DNA from: Candidatus Sulfotelmatobacter sp.
GTDB taxonomy: Bacteria; Pseudomonadota; Alphaproteobacteria; Ferrovibrionales; Ferrovibrionaceae
Direction: 5' to 3'
NCBI GenBank assembly: GCA_035523835.1
Contig: DATKQA010000417.1
Span: 1-27,088, forward strand
DNA length: 27,088 nucleotides
Below, one piece after another: positions 2,450 through 16,018 of this stretch (the stretch's first letter is position 1; the number at the start of each line of letters is the position of its first letter). The position numbers were made by a program, and so were the translations under genes. The notes beneath the pieces were generated by a model. That model saw only the letters and a list, made by a program, of their open reading frames with translations. It did no database searches and was not told the DNA's origin.

Positions 2450-2521
2450 GGGTCCGGCGGCTCCGCCCGGGCGGCTCACATTTCCGCTTCAGGCTTTGCT
2501 AAGGATAAGATACATAAGCAA

Positions 2522-2534
2522 TTTCAACATGTTA
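2522..2534 (+). promoter_or_regulatory. IHF-binding site candidate
   Basis: TTTCAACATGTTA versus consensus WATCAANNNNTTR (1 mismatch), in an AT-rich patch between the ftr elements and the sigma54 promoter. A near-identical site sits at 4371-4383. Confidence 0.6.
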
Positions 2535-2563
2535 TCGGAGGATCGCGGAAGCGGCCGCGGCTC

Positions 2564-2578
2564 TGGCATGCGGCTTGC
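2564..2578 (+). promoter_or_regulatory. Sigma54 (-24/-12) promoter of flagellin-1-flbT-flaF1
   Basis: TGGCAT-GCGGC-TTGC matches TGGCAC-N5-TTGC, 82 nt upstream of the flagellin ATG. Confidence 0.85.
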
Positions 2579-2660
2579 CATTGTGGCTTCGAGCCGAATG
2601 CACAGCTTTCCGCCGTCAGAAGGCGACCCGCGAAATATCTGCGGATGAGGAGACAGAATC

Positions 2661-3476
2661 ATGGTTCTATCGATCAACACCAACACGCCGGCCGCTCTGG
2701 CGCTCGAGCAGTTGAACAACACCAACGCCCAGCTCAATCAGACGCAGCTCGCCATCTCGACGGGCCTCAAGGTCAACGGCCCGAAGGACGATCCCTCGGC
2801 CTATGCCATCGCCCAGAACCTGCGCGGCCAGATCGCCGGTACCCAGGCGGTCGGCATCGCGCTGTCCACCGGCGGTTCCGCGGTCAACGTCGCCATCAGC
2901 GCCGGTCAGTCGATCGCCGACCTGCTGACCCAGGCCAAGGCCAAGATCGTGCAGGCCAACCAGAACGGCCTCGACCCGGTGTCGCGCACCGCCTTGCACA
3001 ACGATTTCGTGGCGCTGCGCGAGCAGATCGACACGATCGTCTCCACCGCCTCGTTCAATGGCACCAACCTGATCGACTCCGGCGCCACCAGCCTGAGCGT
3101 GCTCTCGACGGTCGACGGCAGCACCATCACCGTCAGCGCCCAGGGCCTGACCACCTCGGCGCTGTCGATCAGCTCCGCCGACCTCACCACCTCGGCCGGC
3201 GCGCTGTCGGCCCTGACCGCGATCAACTCGGCCATCACCGAGGTCTCTAACGCGCTGGCGGCACTCGGCGCCTCCGCCGAACAGATCGATCTGCAGTCGA
3301 GCTTCGCCACCAAGCTGGTCGACATCCTGAGCGCCGGCGTCGGCGACCTCGTCGATGCGGATATGGCCTCGGAGAGCGCGCAACTCCAGTCGCTGCAGGT
3401 CAAGCAGCAGCTCGGCGTGCAGGCACTCTCGATTGCCAACCAGTCGCCGCAGGCGATCCTGGCGCTGTTCCGCTAG
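2661..3476 (+). CDS. fliC: Flagellin 1 (271 aa, short Caulobacter-type)
   Basis: N-terminal SINTN...STGLKVNGPKDD, central FNGTNL, C-terminal VDADMASESAQLQSLQVKQQLGVQALSIANQSPQAILALFR. RBS GAGGAG upstream. Confidence 0.97.
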   Translation: MVLSINTNTPAALALEQLNNTNAQLNQTQLAISTGLKVNGPKDDPSAYAIAQNLRGQIAGTQAVGIALSTGGSAVNVAISAGQSIADLLTQAKAKIVQANQNGLDPVSRTALHNDFVALREQIDTIVSTASFNGTNLIDSGATSLSVLSTVDGSTITVSAQGLTTSALSISSADLTTSAGALSALTAINSAITEVSNALAALGASAEQIDLQSSFATKLVDILSAGVGDLVDADMASESAQLQSLQVKQQLGVQALSIANQSPQAILALFR

Positions 3477-3531
3477 GATATCGGCTAGACATCGCACGGG
3501 GCGGGGCCGAGAAGCGGCTCCGGCAGGCAGA

Positions 3532-3936
3532 ATGGCACTCAAGATTACCCTCAAGCCGGGCGAGAAGTTCGTCATCAACGGCGCCGTCATCATCAACGGC
3601 GATCGCCGGACCAACATGGTGATCCAGAACAAGGTTTCGATCCTGCGCGAGCGGGACATCATGCAGTTCGAAGAGGCGAACACGCCGGTCAAGCGCATCT
3701 ATTTTCCGATCATGATGATGTATCTCGACGGGGGCCGGGACAAGACGCTGCACGCAGAATTCGTGCGCCGCGTTACCGAATTCATCAACGCCGTCACCAA
3801 TTCCGAGGCGCTGCAGCTCAGCATCAGCATCATTCAGGCTGTCAACGCCGGGGAATTCTATCGCGCCCTTCTGGCATGCAAGAAGCTGCTGCCGTTCGAA
3901 CAGGAAAGACTGTCCTATGAGCCTGGCAAAGTATAA
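3532..3936 (+). CDS. flbT: Flagellin mRNA-binding regulator FlbT (134 aa)
   Basis: MALKITLKPGEKFVINGAVI...SILRERDIM...TPVKRIYF...FYRALLACKKL. Start placed at ATG 3532 inside track ORF 3355..3936; overlaps flaF by 20 nt. Confidence 0.92.
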   Translation: MALKITLKPGEKFVINGAVIINGDRRTNMVIQNKVSILRERDIMQFEEANTPVKRIYFPIMMMYLDGGRDKTLHAEFVRRVTEFINAVTNSEALQLSISIIQAVNAGEFYRALLACKKLLPFEQERLSYEPGKV

Positions 3937-4270
3937 GTCCGTTCAGAACGCCACCGAGCATCCGCGCAGCACGGAATACCGGCTGTTCGCGCAGGTCACC
4001 CGCGCGCTGATGGAGATCGGCGACAAGATCGATGCCAAGGCGCACGAGACGCTGCATTGGAACCAGCGCATGTGGATCGCGCTGCAGACCGATCTGGCGG
4101 CCGACGGCAACCAACTGCCCGACGGACTCAAGGCGCAGCTCATCTCGCTTGCCACCTGGGTCGACAAGTACACCATGAAGGTGATGCAGCGGCGCGCGCC
4201 GCTGGCGCCGCTGATCCAGGTGAACCGCGCCATCATGGAAGGATTGGCGAGCAGCGCCGGCGCGGCGTGA
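3917..4270 (+). CDS. flaF: Flagellar biosynthesis regulator FlaF, copy 1
   Basis: YKSVQNATEHPRSTEYRLF...WNQRMW...DLAADGNQLPDGLKAQLISL...LIQVNRAIMEGL; adjacent to flbT. Confidence 0.92.
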   Translation: MSLAKYKSVQNATEHPRSTEYRLFAQVTRALMEIGDKIDAKAHETLHWNQRMWIALQTDLAADGNQLPDGLKAQLISLATWVDKYTMKVMQRRAPLAPLIQVNRAIMEGLASSAGAA

Positions 4271-4291
4271 GGCGGGCGGCAATTTCGTACC

Positions 4292-4336
4292 GGTAGAAAC
4301 TGCCGCCCCGGCAAATCTTGCCGGGCAGAAATCGCC
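4292..4336. promoter_or_regulatory. ftr (FlbD enhancer) cluster for flagellin-2
   Basis: 19-bp dyad CCCGGC-AAATCTT-GCCGGG at 4307-4325, flanked by GGT-AGAAACT-GCC (4292-4304) and GGC-AGAAATC-GCC (4324-4336). Confidence 0.75.
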
Positions 4337-4370
4337 GGCCGCATGGTGAATGCTGGGTAAATTCTGCCGA

Positions 4371-4383
4371 TTTCAACATCTTA
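4371..4383 (+). promoter_or_regulatory. IHF-binding site candidate
   Basis: TTTCAACATCTTA, 12/13 identical to the site at 2522-2534 and at a similar distance from the sigma54 element. Confidence 0.6.
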
Positions 4384-4408
4384 ACAGAAAGCAAATCGGC
4401 CGCTTCCG

Positions 4409-4423
4409 TGGCATGGCGATTGC
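4409..4423 (+). promoter_or_regulatory. Sigma54 promoter of flagellin-2
   Basis: TGGCAT-GGCGA-TTGC. Confidence 0.85.
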
Positions 4424-4495
4424 TTCTTCGGGCACGGGGCAAAATGCCCCGCCGGCAAAACGCCGGAATTCTCCGTCAGAAGAAGGAGCGTACCC

Positions 4496-5317
4496 GTGTC
4501 CACTACCAATTCCATCAATACCAATACCGCCGCAGCCGCCGCTCTGGAGCAGTTGAACTCCACCCGTATTCAGTTGGCCCAGACGCAGCAAGCCGTCACC
4601 ACGGGCCTTCGAGTGAGCGGCCCGCAGGACGACGCGTCGAGCTTCGCCATCGCCCTGAACCTGAAAGGCACGATCGCCGGCGACACCGCCGTGCAGACCG
4701 CGCTCTCGACCGGTGAATCGGCGGTGAACGTCGCCGTGAACGCCGGCCAGTCGATCGCCGACCTGCTGACCCAGGCCAAGGCGAAGATCGTGGAAGCCAA
4801 CCAGAGCGGCCTCGACGCCACGTCGCGCACCGCCCTGCACAACGACTTCGCGGCTCTGCGCAGCCAGATCAACACGATCGTTGCCACCGCCTCGTTCAAC
4901 GGCACGAACCTGATCGACTCTGGCGCCACCACGCTCAACGTGTTGAGCACGGCGGACGGCAGCGTCATCGCGGTGAGCGCCCAGGGCCTGACCAGCTCGG
5001 CCCTCGGCATCAGCTCTGCCGACCTGACCACCTCGGGCAGCGCCACGGCGGCTCTGACGGCGATCAACACCGCCATCACCACAGTGGCGAACGCGCTCGC
5101 CGCTCTCGGTTCGGCGGTCAGCCGAATTGAGGACCAGAGCACCTTCACCGGCAAGCTGATCGATACGCTGAATGCCGGCGTGGGCGATCTCGTGGACGCC
5201 GACCTGGCGCAGGAGAGCGCGCAGTTGCAGGCCCTGCAGATCAAGCAGCAGCTTGGCGTGCAGGCACTGTCGATTGCGAACCAGACTCCGCAGTCGTTGC
5301 TGTCTCTGTTCCGCTAA
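4496..5317 (+). CDS. fliC: Flagellin 2 (273 aa), GTG start
   Basis: SINTN, TTGLRVSGPQDDASSFAIA, FNGTNL and VDADLAQESAQLQALQIKQQLGVQALSIAN. RBS AAGGAG at 4483-4488; clear paralog of flagellin 1. Confidence 0.97.
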   Translation: MSTTNSINTNTAAAAALEQLNSTRIQLAQTQQAVTTGLRVSGPQDDASSFAIALNLKGTIAGDTAVQTALSTGESAVNVAVNAGQSIADLLTQAKAKIVEANQSGLDATSRTALHNDFAALRSQINTIVATASFNGTNLIDSGATTLNVLSTADGSVIAVSAQGLTSSALGISSADLTTSGSATAALTAINTAITTVANALAALGSAVSRIEDQSTFTGKLIDTLNAGVGDLVDADLAQESAQLQALQIKQQLGVQALSIANQTPQSLLSLFR

Positions 5318-5327
5318 GGGTAAGGAC

Positions 5328-5357
5328 GGGGAGGCGGGGCGCAGGCCGCGCCTCCCC
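5328..5357 (+). terminator. Stem-loop after flagellin-2 (partial terminator or mRNA-stabilising hairpin)
   Basis: GGGGAGGCG...CGCCTCCCC 9-bp perfect outer stem, followed by the pyrimidine-rich ATTCTTCCATTGTT with no clean U tract. Confidence 0.5.
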
Positions 5358-5454
5358 ATTCTTCCATTGTTGCTTGCGACAGGTCTGCCGCGACCGGAGG
5401 CGCACAATCAGCCGTTCCGGCCGTGGCGCGAGAGCTCACAATCGGGAATAGCTT

Positions 5455-5838
5455 ATGTCATTGCAGAAATATCAGGCGGCACAACGCGCGACGGAGAGTC
5501 CGCGCAGCACGGAATACCGACTCTTCGCGCAGGTCACGCGCGCATTGATGGACTACAAGGAGGGCCCGGGGCCGAAGCGCATCGAGGCGCTGGATTGGAA
5601 CCGCCATGTCTGGACCGTGCTGTTGAGCGATCTGGCGGATTCCCGCAATCAACTGCCGAGCCAGTTGAAGGCGACGTTGATTTCGCTGTCGATCTGGGTC
5701 GGCAAATACACCCGCAAGGTGATGAGCGGACGGGCGCCGCTGCAGCCGTTGATCGATGTCAATCGCAACGTCATGGAAGGCCTCGCGGCCGGGGCGCGGA
5801 ACGCGCTCGCGCAACCGCAGAATCGCAACGCGGCCTGA
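5455..5838 (+). CDS. flaF: FlaF, copy 2 (127 aa)
   Basis: Aligns without gaps to FlaF copy 1; my hand count is 70 identities over 111 residues. Confidence 0.92.
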   Translation: MSLQKYQAAQRATESPRSTEYRLFAQVTRALMDYKEGPGPKRIEALDWNRHVWTVLLSDLADSRNQLPSQLKATLISLSIWVGKYTRKVMSGRAPLQPLIDVNRNVMEGLAAGARNALAQPQNRNAA

Positions 5839-5877: not shown

Positions 5878-5916
5878 AGGGGCGGCGGACGGTGGTCCGG
5901 CCGCCCCTTTCGTTTT
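5878..5916 (+). terminator. Rho-independent terminator between convergent flaF2 and the decarboxylase
   Basis: AGGGGCGG-C-GGAC / GTCC-GG-CCGCCCCT hairpin followed by TTCGTTTT. Confidence 0.7.
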
Positions 5917-5923
5917 CGACGGC

Positions 5924-7402
5924 TCAGTGGGCGCGGGCGGCACCGAGGCGCAGGACGGCGTCGACCAGGAGGTCGAAATCCTCGAGCCGGCTGCGGTGGT
6001 TGGTGATGGCGACGCGGATGGCCAGCCTGCCGTCGAGACGCGTGGTGGAGGGGGCGGCGATGCCCGTTTCCTGCAGGTCGGCGACGATGGCCTCGTTCAA
6101 GCGGTCGAGCGCGGCCTCGGGCGCCATCGACGGCGCGTAGCGGAAGCAGACGATATTGAGTGGTCCGGCCGCCATCGGCTCGAGCGCCGGTTCGCGCCGG
6201 ACGCGGTCGGCGAGGTAGGCGGCCTGGCGGCAATTCTCCTCGATCTTCCGGCCCAGCCGCTCGACGCCGTGTTCCTTCAAGGTGAACCAGACCTTGAGCG
6301 CACGGAAGCCGCGCGACATTTCCGGCCCGTACTCGCAGAACCAGGGGTTGGCCCCGGCCAGGCCGCGCGGCGCCGCCGCCAGATAGTCGTGGCGGGCCGA
6401 GAAGGCGCCGAGCTGCAAGGCGCTGTCGCGGATCAGCACGCAGCCGGCGTCGTAGGGCACGTGCAGCCATTTATGGAAATCGAAGGCGATGGAATCGGCC
6501 TGTTCGATGCCGCGGACCAGCGGCGCCAGGCGTTCGCTCATCACGGCCAGCGCGCCGAAGGCGCCGTCGACATGGAACCAGAGGCCGTAGTCGCGGCAGA
6601 CGGCTGCCAGGGCCGAGAGATCGTCGACGGCGCCGGTATTGACGGTGCCGGCGGTGCCGACGACGCAAAACGGCCGCAAGCCTTGCGCCAGGTCGGCCTC
6701 GATCCGGCGGCGCAAGGCAGCGAGGTCGATCCGGCGCGAGGCGTCGACGGCGACGGTGCGGAGTGCCTTGCGGCCGAGGCCGAGCGTCTCGAAGGCCTTG
6801 GCGAGCGAACCGTGCGCCTCGCTGGAGCTATAGGCGACCAGCGGGACGGCGCCGAGACCGTCCTGCCGCACGTCGCGTCCCGCCTTGTGGTTGCGGGCCA
6901 CGGTGAGCGCCACCTGGTGCGCCATCGAGGTGCCGCTGACCAGCAGGCCGCCGGCTTCCGCCGGCAGGGCGAAGAGTTCGCAGAACCACTGGATGACCTG
7001 CCGTTCGACATAGACGGCGCCGTGGTCGCGGCCGCCGACATTGGCGTTCATCGCCGCCGCCAGCATCTCGGCGACGACGCCGCCGGCCGTGCCGGAACCA
7101 TGCACCCAGCCAAAGAAACGCGGATGGGTATTGCCGGTGCCGTAGGGCAGGATCAGCTCCGCGCAATCCCGCGCGGTCCTGGCGGCGCCCTGTCCGGCGC
7201 GCGGCAGCGGCTCGGTCAAGGCCTGCTTGACGGCCTCGGGCACCGGCCGCCAGACCGGCCGCTGCCGCACGGTCGCCAGCGAATCCAGCGCGGCGTCGAG
7301 CATCTCGTGCGCCAGGCGGCGGAAGGCGGGCCAGTCCGCCGGATCGAGCGAGCCTCCGTCGACCGCCGCCGGCTGCCGGGAGAATTCCGCAAAGGCGTTC
7401 AT
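5924..7402 (-). CDS. Group II PLP-dependent amino-acid decarboxylase (DDC/GAD/Ddc family), 492 aa
   Basis: HPRFFGWV, EAHGSLAKA (conserved His), VVGTAGTVNTGAVDD, WFHVDGAFG, SIAFDFHKWL (PLP Lys, codon 6470-6472), HDYL (catalytic-loop Tyr) and EMSRGFRALKVW. Confidence 0.93.
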   Translation of the reverse strand: MNAFAEFSRQPAAVDGGSLDPADWPAFRRLAHEMLDAALDSLATVRQRPVWRPVPEAVKQALTEPLPRAGQGAARTARDCAELILPYGTGNTHPRFFGWVHGSGTAGGVVAEMLAAAMNANVGGRDHGAVYVERQVIQWFCELFALPAEAGGLLVSGTSMAHQVALTVARNHKAGRDVRQDGLGAVPLVAYSSSEAHGSLAKAFETLGLGRKALRTVAVDASRRIDLAALRRRIEADLAQGLRPFCVVGTAGTVNTGAVDDLSALAAVCRDYGLWFHVDGAFGALAVMSERLAPLVRGIEQADSIAFDFHKWLHVPYDAGCVLIRDSALQLGAFSARHDYLAAAPRGLAGANPWFCEYGPEMSRGFRALKVWFTLKEHGVERLGRKIEENCRQAAYLADRVRREPALEPMAAGPLNIVCFRYAPSMAPEAALDRLNEAIVADLQETGIAAPSTTRLDGRLAIRVAITNHRSRLEDFDLLVDAVLRLGAARAH

Positions 7403-7406
7403 TGCG

Positions 7407-9212
7407 TCAGGCCGCGCCGGCGATGCGCGCCTCGATCAGGCTTTCCAGGGCCTGGAAGATGCGCGGCACGTAGCGGTGCTTGTAGGGATAGGCTGCGATC
7501 GGATCCATCAGATGCACGATCATGCCGACATCGACTTCGAACAGCAGCAGGCGATTGTCGGCGGTGATCGAGCAGTCGATGCCGAAATAGTCGAGGCCGA
7601 CCGTCTGGCCGATCGCCTCCAGCGCGTGCTGCAGCGAGGCGTCGAACCGATGGCTGTGGTCGGCGAGGAAATGGCTCTCCTCGCGGCGCTTCCAGTCGCT
7701 GTCCATGTCGGCGTTGTAGTAGTGCACCATCCAGTGCCTGGAGATCGCGAGATGGAAGGGATAGGGCACGCCGCCGATGTAGATGAAGCGGTACTTCCGG
7801 TAGTGGCCGTCGCCGTTGGCGTAATCGACGAAATCGGTGACGTAGAACTCGTCCGCCGCGACCTCGGCGAGATAGCCGGCGAGCTGGTCCCCGTTGTCGA
7901 TCTTCGCCAGGTCGTTGCCGGCATGGGCGCCGGCGGGCCGGATCAGCAGGGGCAGGGCGGCACCGCCCGCCGTCAGAAAACGGTCGAACGACGGGGCGGC
8001 GAGATCGCGCCGCGCGGCGCGGCGCACCCGGGGGATCACGCAATGCCCGATGCCCCGGAGCTTCGCCGCCATGTGGTCGCGCGTGGTCTCCAGCACCCGC
8101 TTGGGGTCGTTGAGCCACGGCTTCCGCATGGTGCCGATGAGGCGCTCGGCCAGCAGCAGGTTCGACCTCACCGCGTCGGGCTCGGCGATGGCGTTGAAGA
8201 CGATGTCGCAGGGCGGCAGCGCGGCGCTGCCGGCTGCGTCATCGCAGACATAGTAGGTGTGCAGGTTGTTGCGCGCCTTGTCGAACAGGAAGTCGGTCGG
8301 GATATTGGCCTGCCAGTCGCCGGGCGCGTTCAGGATGAGAATGTTGCGGGCCGTCGTCGCCGCGCCGCTCCATTCGCTGAAGACGCGCTTCACCTGCAAG
8401 GCTTGGCGCTGGTGGGCGAGCGCCGTTGCCTTGTCGCCGAGCGCCTGGGCGATGGCATAGATCGCCATGTGCACGTCGGCGAGTGTCGGATCGATCTCGA
8501 CGGCGCGGCGGAAGGCCTGCATCGCCTCGTCGAGCTTGTATTGCTGGCGCAGGATGCTGGCGAGGCCGACATGGGCCTCGGTCTGCCGAGGATCGATGGC
8601 GAGCGCGCGGCGAAAGGCTTCGATCGCTTCCGCGGGCCGCCCGGCCTCGGCCAGGGCCACGCCGAGGTTGTTGTGCAGCTCGGCCCGGTCGGGATGCAGC
8701 GCCACCAGGCGGGCGAACGCCGCGATGGCCGCATCCAGCTCGCCCTTCTGCCGCAGGGCGCCGCCGAGGCGGTTCAGGGCCTCGGCGTAATCGGGCCGCA
8801 GGATCGTCGCCGCGCGAAATGCGGCAATGGCCGCATCGAGGCTCCCCTGCTCCAGCAGGGCTGTGCCGAGGCTGTTCTGCAGCGTGGCATTGGCCGGGTC
8901 GAGCGCGATCGCTTCCCGATAGGCGGCGAGCGCTTCCGCCGATCGGCCGAGCCTGCGCAGGGCGTGGCCGAGGTTGGCCAGGGCCTCGCGATAGCCCGGC
9001 TTCAGGCCGACGGCACGCCCGATCAGGTCCGCCGCCAGGGCGGCATCGCCGGCGCGGAAGGCGATGACGCCGTTGAGATGCAGCGCCTCCGCATAGGCCG
9101 GATCGTCGGGCGGCACGTTCCGGCAGGCGGCCAGCGCTTCGGTTTGCCTGCCGGCCTTGAAATACGTCAAGGCGTTCTGGATTTCCTGGCGGGATGATTG
9201 CTGCAGCGACAT
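7407..9212 (-). CDS. TPR-repeat / ATP-grasp (RimK/GshB-like) ligase fusion, 601 aa
   Basis: The N-terminal ~270 aa are TPRs (ALANLGHAL, LHNNLGVAL, AHVGLASIL). The C-terminal part has ATP-grasp-like segments WLNDPKRVLETTRD, PLLIRPAGAHAGNDL, YVTDFVD, RKYRFIYIGG and GLDYFGIDC...LLFEVD. Confidence 0.75.
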   Translation of the reverse strand: MSLQQSSRQEIQNALTYFKAGRQTEALAACRNVPPDDPAYAEALHLNGVIAFRAGDAALAADLIGRAVGLKPGYREALANLGHALRRLGRSAEALAAYREAIALDPANATLQNSLGTALLEQGSLDAAIAAFRAATILRPDYAEALNRLGGALRQKGELDAAIAAFARLVALHPDRAELHNNLGVALAEAGRPAEAIEAFRRALAIDPRQTEAHVGLASILRQQYKLDEAMQAFRRAVEIDPTLADVHMAIYAIAQALGDKATALAHQRQALQVKRVFSEWSGAATTARNILILNAPGDWQANIPTDFLFDKARNNLHTYYVCDDAAGSAALPPCDIVFNAIAEPDAVRSNLLLAERLIGTMRKPWLNDPKRVLETTRDHMAAKLRGIGHCVIPRVRRAARRDLAAPSFDRFLTAGGAALPLLIRPAGAHAGNDLAKIDNGDQLAGYLAEVAADEFYVTDFVDYANGDGHYRKYRFIYIGGVPYPFHLAISRHWMVHYYNADMDSDWKRREESHFLADHSHRFDASLQHALEAIGQTVGLDYFGIDCSITADNRLLLFEVDVGMIVHLMDPIAAYPYKHRYVPRIFQALESLIEARIAGAA

Positions 9213-9260: not shown

Positions 9261-9746
9261 TCAGACCCTTTGATCGAGCGCCAGCGAGGTCGGCCGGGCG
9301 ACGCGGTAGTTCGGCGTGACCGGGCGCATGGTGGCGTGCTTGTCGTAGCCGCTGACCGGACGGTTTCGCTTCGCCACCTCGTCGCCGATGCTCTTCACCA
9401 CCCGCTCGGTCACCACACGCATGGCGTTGACCTTGCGGCCGTTCTCCTCGATCAGACGGCGGAAACGCTGGGTGACCTCCCGGAGCCGGGCGACATCGGC
9501 CGGCGCCGCACCCTGCAGGCGGCCGGGGTCCTTGTTGATGCTCGCCATCTCGCGCGCATACATTGCCGCCAGCCGCTGCTTCTCGTCGATCTGCTTGCTC
9601 AGATCCTTCGGCCGGCGCTGACTCAGCAGCGCGTTCTCGGCGGTGATCAGGTCGATCAGCCGCTCCGTGATCAGGATCAGCGTGTCGAGCGAGCCGAGGC
9701 GCACGGCGCCGTTGCCGGCGGGCGGGGACTGCGGTGCGGCGCTCAT
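9261..9746 (-). CDS. FlgN-like flagellar export chaperone (FlbY position), 161 aa
   Basis: Helical LIDLITAENALL...EKQRLAAMY pattern. It directly follows flgI-flgJ with a 4-nt overlap, the position flbY occupies in Caulobacter. Confidence 0.65.
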   Translation of the reverse strand: MSAAPQSPPAGNGAVRLGSLDTLILITERLIDLITAENALLSQRRPKDLSKQIDEKQRLAAMYAREMASINKDPGRLQGAAPADVARLREVTQRFRRLIEENGRKVNAMRVVTERVVKSIGDEVAKRNRPVSGYDKHATMRPVTPNYRVARPTSLALDQRV

Positions 9747-10075
9747 CGGCCGCCCTCCTGCAACCGCACCATCTCCTGATAGACGGCGCTGGCGATGCCG
9801 ATGCCGCCGTGCCGCGTGACCTGCTTGCCATATTGCTCGCTCAACATGGAGCGGATGATGTTTTCGGCCTGGCCGCCGCCGAAGTTGGGATCGGCCTGCA
9901 CGCTCTCGTTCATCAATTCAAACATCTGGTTCAGGAACATGGATTCGAAGCCTCGGGCGGTGCGCCACATCTTGGCCGCGTTGCCGGGATGCAGGTTGAT
10001 GCTCGGCTGGGCGGCGGTCGGCAGGCCCTGCAGGGTCGGCGACGACAGGGTGGCGAGAGGTGCGGCCGCGTCCAT
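9743..10075 (-). CDS. flgJ: FlgJ, rod-binding domain only (no muramidase), 110 aa
   Basis: ARGFESMFLNQMFELM...FGGGQAENIIRSMLSEQYGKQVTRHGGIGIASAVYQEM. Start ATG at 10075 overlaps the flgI stop (TGATG). Confidence 0.85.
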   Translation of the reverse strand: MDAAAPLATLSSPTLQGLPTAAQPSINLHPGNAAKMWRTARGFESMFLNQMFELMNESVQADPNFGGGQAENIIRSMLSEQYGKQVTRHGGIGIASAVYQEMVRLQEGGR

Positions 10076-11409
10076 CAGCGCACCACGATCTCGGCCTGGA
10101 GGGCGCCGGCGGTCTTCACCGTCTGCAGGATCGAGATCATGTCGCGCGGGCCGATGCCGAGCGCGTTCAGGCCGTTGACCAGTTCTTCCAGGCTGACGCT
10201 CGCCGGCAGCACGCCGAGGCGCTTGTCCTTGCCTTCGTCGACCTGGATGTCGGTGCGCGGCACCACCACGGTCTGCGCGCCGCCGCCGATCTGGCCCGGG
10301 GTCGCCGACTGGCCAGGGACGCCGGTGCCCGGGATCGCCTGCGGCACCAGGTCGAAGATCGGCTGGCCGTTGGGCGTGAGGGCCGGGGTTCCGTTGGCAT
10401 TGAGCCGCTGCACCTCGAGGTTGCCGACCGAGGCGCTGGTGCCGGCGATGCCGGGCTGGCCCTGCACCACGCCGGGGCCGGGCGCGAAGGCGTTGGGCTG
10501 CGACACCTGTGGCGTCTCGGTGATGCGGATGGTGAGGTTGCCCTGGGCGATGGCGACGGTCGAGATGCGCACGTCCTTGCCCATGACGATGATGCCGTTG
10601 TTCTCGTCGATCACCACGCGCGCTTCTTGATCCGGTTCGACCTTGAGGTCTTCCACGTCGCTCAGCAGGCCGACGACATTGTTGTGGTAGCTGGCCGGCA
10701 CGGTGAGCAGCACGGTCGTCGGGTCGAGCAGCTTGGCCGCCGGCGTGCCGAGATAGGAATTCATCGCCTGCGCCATGCGGCGCGCGGTGGTGAGGTCGGG
10801 ATTGCGCAGCGCGACGCGGATCGACGTCATCTGCGACAGTTCGAAGCCGACCTCGCGCTCGACGATGGCGCCCGAGGCGATGCGGCCGGTGGTCGGCACC
10901 CCCTTGGTGATCGAGGCCGCCTGGCCGCTGGCGGTGAAGCCGCCGATGGTGACCGGGCCTTGCGCCACGGCATAGACCTCGCCGTCGGCGCCCATCAGCG
11001 GGGTGACCAGCAGCACGCCGCCCTGCAGGCTCTTGGCATCGCCGATGGCGCTGATGGTGACGTCGATGTGGCCGCCCTGGCGGGCGAAGGGCGGCAGGGT
11101 CGCGGTCACCATCACCGCGGCGATATTGGCCGGATCGGTGGAGGTGCTGGCGCGGATATTGACGCCCATGCGCTCCAGCATGGCCTGCAGGCTCTGCAGG
11201 GTCATCGGCGAATTGCGCACGGAGTCGCCGGTGCCGTTCAGGCCGACCACCAGGCTGTAGCCGATCAGCATGTTCTCGCGGATGCCCTCGAAATCGGCAA
11301 TGTCCTTGATGCGCGAGGTGGCGCAGGCTTCGCCGGCGCTGCACAGCAGGCAAAGCAGGCCGAGCAGGCCAAGAAGGGGGCGGATCGTTCGAATGCGCGA
11401 AGAGGTCAT
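10075..11409 (-). CDS. flgI: Flagellar P-ring protein FlgI (444 aa, carrying a ~65-aa insertion)
   Basis: RIKDIADFEGIRENMLIGYSLVVGLNGTGD, NIAAVMVTATLPPF, DAKSLQGGVLLVTPL and LVNGLNALGIGPRDMISILQTVKTAGALQAEI. Start moved to ATG 11409 (signal peptide follows; the sigma54 site lies inside the longer track ORF). Confidence 0.96.
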   Translation of the reverse strand: MTSSRIRTIRPLLGLLGLLCLLCSAGEACATSRIKDIADFEGIRENMLIGYSLVVGLNGTGDSVRNSPMTLQSLQAMLERMGVNIRASTSTDPANIAAVMVTATLPPFARQGGHIDVTISAIGDAKSLQGGVLLVTPLMGADGEVYAVAQGPVTIGGFTASGQAASITKGVPTTGRIASGAIVEREVGFELSQMTSIRVALRNPDLTTARRMAQAMNSYLGTPAAKLLDPTTVLLTVPASYHNNVVGLLSDVEDLKVEPDQEARVVIDENNGIIVMGKDVRISTVAIAQGNLTIRITETPQVSQPNAFAPGPGVVQGQPGIAGTSASVGNLEVQRLNANGTPALTPNGQPIFDLVPQAIPGTGVPGQSATPGQIGGGAQTVVVPRTDIQVDEGKDKRLGVLPASVSLEELVNGLNALGIGPRDMISILQTVKTAGALQAEIVVR

Positions 11410-11451: not shown

Positions 11452-11466
11452 GCGAATCCCGTGCCA
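11452..11466 (-). promoter_or_regulatory. Sigma54 promoter of the flgI operon
   Basis: Minus strand TGGCAC-GGGAT-TCGC, 42 nt upstream of ATG 11409. Confidence 0.75.
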
Positions 11467-16002: not shown

Positions 16003-16018
16003 TGCACGCGGCGTGCCA
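16003..16018 (-). promoter_or_regulatory. Sigma54 promoter of flgFGAH
   Basis: Minus strand TGGCAC-GCCGC-GTGCA. Confidence 0.75.

Follow-up and report, generated by a model that had tools for sequence, protein, structure and literature searches.

Here, we describe a two-gene cassette that is embedded in an alphaproteobacterial flagellar locus and that is best read as an amide-forming module. The locus lies on a 27,088-nucleotide stretch of DNA (contig DATKQA010000417.1; below, the window) from a 76%-complete metagenome-assembled genome assigned to Candidatus Sulfotelmatobacter sp., and the cassette sits between the second of two flaF genes (flaF2) and an flbY-like gene. The first gene encodes a protein in which N-terminal tetratricopeptide repeats (TPR) are followed by a domain with the predicted fold of an ATP-grasp ligase (the TPR-ligase), and the second encodes a group II amino-acid decarboxylase dependent on pyridoxal 5′-phosphate (PLP). 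We suggest that the decarboxylase would convert an amino acid to a primary amine and that the RimK/LysX-like ligase would activate a carboxylate as an acyl phosphate and couple the amine to it.

In this lineage, the cassette appears to have been inserted at the 3′ end of a sigma54-type flgI-flgJ-flbY operon, beside flagellin and flaF genes, and for that reason is probably transcribed with late flagellar genes. The likeliest substrate would be a component of the flagellar filament, i.e., flagellin or a sugar or precursor attached to flagellin, and the long TPR domain could serve as a protein-docking adaptor, as it does in FlmG. That the cassette modifies a flagellar filament target in this lineage is plausible, and we assign this reading a probability of roughly 0.45.

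The cassette encodes a predicted ATP-grasp ligase and a group II decarboxylase

Several lines of evidence support the assignment of the C-terminal half of the TPR-ligase. In the 601-residue protein, Pfam models place the TPR repeats at approximately residues 40 to 280, while residues 285 to 601 match no Pfam or NCBIfam model, including those for RimK, LysX and other ATP-grasp proteins, and a single-sequence phmmer search of the ligase against the PDB gave no match. First, an AF2 model of the C-terminal domain built on an alignment of 41 homologs, which replaced an unusable single-sequence run (predicted local distance difference test score [pLDDT] of 35), has a pLDDT of 91.7 and a predicted template-modeling score of 0.90. 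Second, Foldseek matched this model to D-Ala-D-Ala ligases and LysX in the PDB with E values of ∼1e-13, and VIA-align gave Z scores of 20.3 for ArgX, 20.2 for RimK, 20.1 for LysX and 18.6 for the glutathione synthetase GshB over residues 8 to 322 of the 322-residue model. For ArgX, RimK and LysX, 261 to 268 residues align with a root-mean-square deviation of 3.5 to 3.7 Å and 13 to 17% identity. Third, a profile of the family searched against the PDB recovered no enzymes other than ATP-grasp enzymes, with LysX (3vpd; E = 0.0015) as the best match and the sole one below an E value of 0.01. Altogether, the model confirms a complete three-subdomain ATP-grasp ligase fold. The preliminary description of this DNA had recognized an ATP-grasp domain from sequence alone and had proposed a structure prediction of the C-terminal ∼310 residues against ATP-grasp folds; that call proved right. 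The likeness to RimK is structural only, as no RimK-type model matches the protein, even though some source annotations call relatives "RimK family."

Twelve residues are invariant in the 41 homologs, i.e., R425, D468, R472, K473, R475, E511, E512, D546, E559, D561, H567, and K578. In the profile alignment, R425 aligns with the strand of LysX that carries the ATP-binding Lys (KP). R425, K473, D546, E559, and D561 would occupy nucleotide- or metal-binding positions, R425 by this explicit alignment and the other four by motif position. A complex prediction for the TPR domain with flagellin scored 0.00 and was returned as no verdict, which counts neither for nor against binding.

The second gene was described from the outset as a group II PLP-dependent decarboxylase, and this identity is unambiguous from its sequence. 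It scores 202 bits against PF00282 (cutoff 27 bits), and its PLP-lysine motif DFHKW aligns with DAHKW of the solved structure 4obu, as does the Tyr of the catalytic loop. The nearest solved relatives are 4obu (tryptophan decarboxylase-type) and DOPA decarboxylase, followed by diaminobutyrate decarboxylase. None of the NCBIfam equivalog cutoffs is reached (RhbB, acting on L-2,4-diaminobutyrate, 204 of 900 bits; the aspartate enzyme PanP, 146 of 606; the tyrosine enzyme MfnA, 87 of 299; histidine, 60 of 305), and the substrate is therefore not assignable. Naming it from the nearest solved relatives, which act on aromatic amino acids, was considered and judged too weak.

Ligase and decarboxylase form an evolutionary unit within a large family

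The ligase represents a large uncharacterized ATP-grasp family without a Pfam model. The family comprises at least 396 clusters in the protein collection and occurs in at least 536 species genomes, mostly of Eremiobacterota/Vulcanimicrobiota and Proteobacteria. Of 300 Alphaproteobacteria sampled evenly, 20 encode a member. We surveyed the gene directly beside the ligase for 95 family copies. This partner is a decarboxylase of the same subfamily in 37 copies and an FAD/NAD(P)-binding protein (PF13454) in 18, while 40 copies, some of them at contig ends, have no recognized partner. Moreover, in a small clade (L082, 9346-10776; L057; L080; L134), a PLP enzyme with the class V aminotransferase fold lies directly downstream of the ligase. 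The partner is almost always an amino-acid-transforming enzyme. The decarboxylase tree mirrors the ligase clades, and the few decarboxylases without a linked ligase branch from within groups of linked ones; because of this, we regard ligase and decarboxylase as an evolutionary unit. Across the decarboxylase-linked copies, the median ligase length is 465 residues as compared to 601 in the window, and many members have a short N-terminal region.

The FAD/NAD(P)-binding partner is a 450-residue protein encoded downstream of the ligase in the position of the decarboxylase (L007 to L041, e.g., L007:10931-12289). The Eremiobacterota subclade with this partner branches from within decarboxylase-linked clades, as if one partner had been swapped for the other. 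A look-up of the protein in the ESM Atlas returned only generic "FAD/NAD(P)-binding protein" names.

The genome from which the window derives encodes two more TPR-ATP-grasp paralogs, in tandem on the plus strand of another contig (L097, contig C399; 7740-9500 and 9430-10944). They adjoin two TPR-sulfotransferase genes on the minus strand (2493-4703 and 6085-7779) and lie away from flagellar genes.

Flagellar adjacency recurs in distant branches of the family

Members of the family adjoin flagellar genes in several lineages besides that of the window. In Rhodopila (L055), the order is flgE-flgK-flgL-decarboxylase-ligase, and a second TPR-ligase, a TPR-GT41 gene, flagellin, and flaF lie within 10 kb. 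In a genome of another alphaproteobacterial family (G094, L132), ligase and decarboxylase follow a flagellin gene and a 564-codon gene and precede a second flagellin gene; this pair occupies the same flaF|flbY junction as in the window but lies on the flagellin strand, and its ligase is 35% identical to that of the window and has no detectable TPR. At L014 and L124, the TPR-ligase gene is divergent from fliK-flgD-flgE-fliF. At L014, two TPR-sulfotransferase genes follow the hook-operon-adjacent TPR-ligase, the same combination as in the L097 paralogs. At L124 (12098-20411), the genes downstream of the ligase encode an NTP-transferase/CBS protein, a DegT aminotransferase, two unknown proteins, an SDR, an AMP-binding enzyme, LuxE, and LuxC; we take these sugar-nucleotide and acyl-activating genes to resemble glycan-modification gene sets, and they may be a flagellar glycan or acyl-sugar set. 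Finally, in Thiorhodococcus (L082), the ligase and the class V PLP enzyme are convergent with fliD-fliC.

On a tree of 122 rows, seven changes are required to account for the eight rows with flagellar neighbors, and well-supported branches force at least six of these changes. The association was thus gained, or retained, more than once and in distant branches. By a rough estimate, ∼1.3 flagellar-adjacent loci would be expected among ∼65 proteobacterial loci while 6 to 7 are observed; this estimate assumes that ∼2% of the gene positions of a flagellated proteobacterium neighbor a flagellar gene, a base rate which is our own figure, and it should be read bearing in mind that related genomes are not independent and that the window itself was selected for its flagellar adjacency. 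The excess is suggestive only.

The 564-residue protein of L132 (7512-9206) has no Pfam match. Its gene separates a flagellin gene from that of the TPR-less ligase, and the protein might stand in for the absent TPR adaptor.

The cassette ends an operon-like run of flagellar genes

On the minus strand of the window, the genes follow each other in the order flgI, flgJ/cheL-like, FlgN/FlbY-like, TPR-ligase, and decarboxylase (Table 1). The orthologs of the FlgN/FlbY-like gene lie downstream of flgI-flgJ in relatives. The two cassette open reading frames (ORFs) are as first described, with a gap of 48 nucleotides between the flbY-like gene and the TPR-ligase gene and one of 4 nucleotides between the latter and the decarboxylase gene. 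On this strand, no terminator-like site was found along the run ahead of a GC-rich hairpin past the decarboxylase stop codon, before the convergent flaF2, and the 48-nucleotide spacer folds no better than its shuffles (z = +0.63). The longest flgI ORF starts upstream of a sigma54-like site; an in-frame ATG at 11409 yields a typical signal peptide (N-terminus MTSSRIRTIRPLLGLLGLLCLLC...) and is probably the start codon. The sigma54-like site would then lie 43 nucleotides upstream of flgI.

With one mismatch allowed, the window contains five sigma54 matches where 1.95 are expected by chance, and four of the five are located just upstream of flagellar genes. A motif scan of the window found no sigma54-like site ahead of the ligase gene. 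The fifth match, at 6676-6690, falls within the decarboxylase gene and is probably due to chance. The preliminary description had proposed that the cassette shares the sigma54 promoter ahead of flgI. The promoter-like site itself holds up, with its single mismatch and its sister sites at other flagellar genes, while co-transcription of the run from flgI to the decarboxylase gene is a reasonable inference from the gene arrangement. The remaining window genes recognized with Pfam include fliX, dksA, flgH, flgA, flgG, flgF, fliM, and others. Near-identical DNA is present in wetland and soil DNA metagenomes and in no RNA run.

Table 1. Positions of the cassette and of neighboring features in the window
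Feature	Position	Strand	Basis or remark
TPR-GT41 gene	1-2316	minus	Pfam
flagellin, flbT, flaF, flagellin, flaF (in this order)	2661-5838	plus	Pfam; FlaF by homology to the sister genome (L001)
GC-rich hairpin between the convergent decarboxylase gene and flaF2	5887..5915		both transcription units probably stop here
Group II PLP-dependent amino-acid decarboxylase, 492 aa	5924-7402	minus	PF00282
TPR-ligase gene, 601 aa	7407-9212	minus	TPR Pfam models and predicted ATP-grasp fold
Ligase C-terminal ATP-grasp domain (predicted), residues 280-601	7407..8375	minus	structure model, profile, 41-homolog alignment
Ligase N-terminal TPR domain, residues 1-283	8363..9212	minus	TPR_16, TPR_11, TPR_1, and others
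FlbY-like/FlgN-like gene, last recognizably flagellar gene of the run	9261-9746	minus	weak match to PF05130 (FlgN), E = 0.001
Rod-binding flgJ/cheL-like gene	9743-10078	minus	PF10135, C-terminal part of a long ORF; 110-aa ortholog in L001
flgI, P-ring protein	10075-11409	minus	PF02119, 452 bits
Sigma54-type promoter-like site TGGCAC-N5-TCGC, candidate promoter of the whole run	11452..11466	minus	one mismatch to TGGCAC-N5-TTGC
One-mismatch sigma54 sites	2564-2578 (flagellin 1), 4409-4423 (flagellin 2), 11452-11466 (flgI), 16004-16018 (flgF)		upstream of the named genes

Weighing the flagellar reading against its alternatives

Several observations weigh against a flagellar role of the cassette. 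First, ∼90% of the family loci, including all of the ∼45 Eremiobacterota loci, have no flagellar gene within 10 kb. The preliminary description had tied its proposal to a linkage of homologous pairs with flagellar loci, and this part did not survive the neighborhood survey, in which the pairs are mostly unlinked. More than 100 kb separate the flagellin genes from the cassette in five Eremiobacterota genomes, whose contigs or chromosomes measure 3.2 to 3.9 Mb. The pair of an Azospirillaceae genome is placed amid the housekeeping genes smpB, dapA, folK, rpoZ, and relA. On two Rhodospirillales-like contigs (L123:7202-13392 and L122:652-13374), the pair is directly downstream of an RND efflux operon, and at L123 the ligase start even overlaps the stop codon of the gene for the outer-membrane component. 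In nine Eremiobacterota loci (e.g., L050:12341-18442), the pair is followed on the same strand by a gene for an 850-residue LuxR/AAA (LAL-type) regulator, and then by genes for a 400-residue protein and an S53 (kumamolisin-like) peptidase.

Second, the junction itself varies. The sister genome L001 shares the insertion with the same synteny (ligase 70% and decarboxylase 81% identical, with proteins overall at 70 to 88%), and among close relatives it is the only one with the pair at the flaF2|flbY junction. In G008, of the same family, the synteny is GT41-flagellin-flbT-flaF-flagellin-flaF | flbY-flgJ-flgI-fliX-dksA as in the window, and the junction measures only ∼600 nucleotides and lacks the pair (L115, 5600-6206). 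In G001, of the same genus, the junction holds 7.5 kb of unrelated genes (L114, 2830-10290) for a beta-lactamase-family hydrolase, an alpha/beta hydrolase, a methyltransferase, an ArsR-rhodanese protein, a fatty-acid hydroxylase, and a DedA-rhodanese protein. Thus, the pair is dispensable for a flagellum of this type, and the site takes up unrelated genes.

Third, features that might tie the cassette to a flagellar substrate are lacking or uneven. Of 47 cassette genomes, 41 have flagellin, but so do 36 of 41 relatives, which makes the phyletic test uninformative. Decarboxylase relatives that are 52 to 61% identical occur without a ligase neighbor in G006, G008, G009, G012, and G017. A search beside the cassette and upstream of the ligase for a conserved small ORF that could encode a carrier, a precursor peptide, or a substrate gave only clade-local ORFs or out-of-frame artifacts. 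Several flagellar-linked members (L132 and L055) have little or no TPR; therefore, the earlier proposal that the TPR domain picks flagellin fails as a general rule. Two ORFs beside unlinked decarboxylases (347 residues at L117 and 607 residues at L120) were also considered as hidden ATP-grasp genes and rejected, with hhalign probabilities <1%.

Alternatively, the cassette could be a hitch-hiker with no part in flagellar structure, present at this site only because insertions are tolerated between the convergent flaF2 and flbY. It would then produce a soluble amide (e.g., a gamma-glutamyl amine, another acyl amine, or a polyamine conjugate) that serves, for example, in signaling, in stress protection, or as an exported metabolite. 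The scarcity of flagellar neighbors elsewhere, the coupling to an RND efflux operon at L123 and similarly at L122, the LuxR/AAA regulator in the nine Eremiobacterota loci, the foreign cargo in G001, and the short N-terminal region of many members all fit this explanation. Moreover, characterized pairs of a decarboxylase and an ATP-grasp enzyme, e.g., MfnA/MfnD, yield small molecules (PMC8141765). However, a hitch-hiker does not readily account for flagellar adjacency in at least six tree-separated lineages, often in operon-like order with filament or hook genes, nor for a protein-binding TPR domain of ∼280 residues on the ligase, and the closest structural relatives, ArgX/LysX and RimK, act on protein C-termini. 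We consider this explanation somewhat doubtful, although it is the likeliest of the alternatives.

The same TPR domain and RimK/LysX-like fold would also suit a protein target outside the flagellum. In this scenario, the TPR domain docks another cellular or envelope protein and the ligase caps its C-terminus or an Asp or Glu side chain with the amine, the flagellar co-expression being incidental or regulatory. The TPR-ligase paralogs in the same genome, which adjoin TPR-sulfotransferases away from flagellar genes, fit with this scenario and suggest a wider set of TPR-guided modifying enzymes. By contrast, no candidate target is conserved beside the cassette, and at L014 the trio of TPR-sulfotransferases and TPR-ligase also adjoins a hook operon. 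We regard such a target as decidedly unlikely.

Very unlikely, finally, is a reverse order in which the ligase attaches an intact amino acid to an acceptor, as LysX does with LysW, and the decarboxylase, the flavoprotein, or the class V PLP enzyme then acts on the tethered residue. In its favor, ArgX and LysX are the closest structural neighbors, and the interchangeable partners all transform amino acids, which is what the tailoring of a tethered residue would call for. However, the PLP Schiff base of group II decarboxylases has to form with an alpha-amino group that is free, so that only side-chain-tethered substrates would work, and no carrier protein gene is conserved nearby.

Returning to a filament target in this lineage, some inferences can be made about the acceptor. 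The TPR domain and the modeled ArgX/RimK/LysX-like fold suggest that the acceptor is a protein or is bound to one, and the members with a short N-terminus together with the sugar-nucleotide genes of L124 point to a glycan or its precursor. A search for NeuB (PF03102), which did not extend to uronic-acid pathways, came back negative for the source genome (76% complete) as well as for G001, G003, G008, and the genome of Rhodopila; consequently, a nonulosonic-acid acceptor (pseudaminic or legionaminic acid) is unsupported here, a further point against a flagellar substrate. In its boldest form, the proposal would be that flagellin or hook-filament junction proteins are amidated directly, at Asp or Glu side chains or at the C-terminus, with the amine coming from the partner decarboxylase. 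This protein-level "aminylation" by a RimK/LysX-like enzyme would then be the work of a mobile two-gene cassette plugged into filament operons of different lineages. We consider this form unlikely.

Significance and comparison with known systems

Known modifications of flagellin include glycosylation, methylation, and the addition of phosphorylcholine-type groups. If the flagellar link is true, ATP-dependent amide decoration would join this list, and it could affect the charge of the filament, the adsorption of phages, and recognition by the immune system or by predators. Should the link prove incidental, the cassette would still define a new amide-forming pathway in which a decarboxylase, a flavoprotein, and a class V PLP enzyme are modular partners of the ligase.

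Several characterized systems resemble the cassette in part. In methanofuran synthesis, the tyrosine decarboxylase MfnA and the tyramine:glutamate ligase MfnD act in succession (PMC8141765), and the TPR domain of FlmG, the flagellin glycosyltransferase of Caulobacter, binds flagellins (PMC7591256); both analogies had been drawn in the preliminary description and are borne out by the literature. As in MfnA/MfnD, a group II-type PLP decarboxylase would supply an amine to an ATP-grasp ligase. However, the product of MfnA/MfnD is a free cofactor intermediate, the decarboxylase of the window falls far short of the MfnA cutoff, and its ligase carries TPR and has no MfnD-type match. FlmG shares with the window ligase the architecture of ∼300 N-terminal TPR residues followed by a catalytic domain as well as a gene tied to flagellin genes; its catalytic domain, by contrast, is a GT-B glycosyltransferase, where the window ligase has a predicted ATP-grasp fold.

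RimK and LysX/ArgX, the enzymes that act on protein C-termini, are the best structural matches across the whole domain. The window ligase differs from LysX in having the invariant Arg425 where LysX has Lys on the same strand, and it differs from classical ATP-grasp enzymes in having Asp561 where these have Asn at the third metal site position, a mapping that would follow from motif position. Its partner is also different, i.e., a decarboxylase in place of S6 for RimK and LysW for LysX.

A chemical parallel with a surface structure is the HS:2 capsule of Campylobacter jejuni. The ATP-grasp domain Cj1438C amidates its glucuronate, using amines made either by Cj1436, a PLP decarboxylase, or by Cj1437, a transaminase (PMC11800397, PMC11800379). 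There, too, the amine comes from a PLP enzyme and is joined by an ATP-grasp domain to a carboxylate, in that case on a surface glycan; the PLP partner is either a decarboxylase or an aminotransferase-fold enzyme, as it is in our family with the class V enzymes of the L082 clade; and both ligases carry a second, fused domain. An amine-forming PLP enzyme is encoded beside the ATP-grasp ligase in the window, as in the Cj1436/Cj1437/Cj1438C type. By contrast, the window domain lacks a Pfam ATP-grasp match, is structurally nearest to RimK/LysX, and is fused to TPR, and the context is flagellar rather than capsular, with phosphorylated serine-derivative amines in C. jejuni.

For flagellin itself, the precedent is the type B modification of Clostridium difficile. 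The flagellin of this type bears a peptidylamido-glycan that contains taurine, and the ATP-grasp gene CDR20291_0245 is required for the terminal moiety of this glycan (PMC5207245, PMC5207246). This flagellin glycan has amide-linked amino compounds, including taurine, a decarboxylation-type amine, and an ATP-grasp gene in its modification cluster. The organism is, however, Gram-positive, its cluster contains no decarboxylase, and the system has no TPR. The statement in the preliminary description that no flagellar modification of this kind had been described thus needs tempering, given this ATP-grasp-dependent glycan. By sequence, the window ligase belongs to none of the families compared here. 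Altogether, the precedents in C. jejuni and C. difficile argue that the proposed modification would be a variant of known chemistry rather than a wholly new kind.

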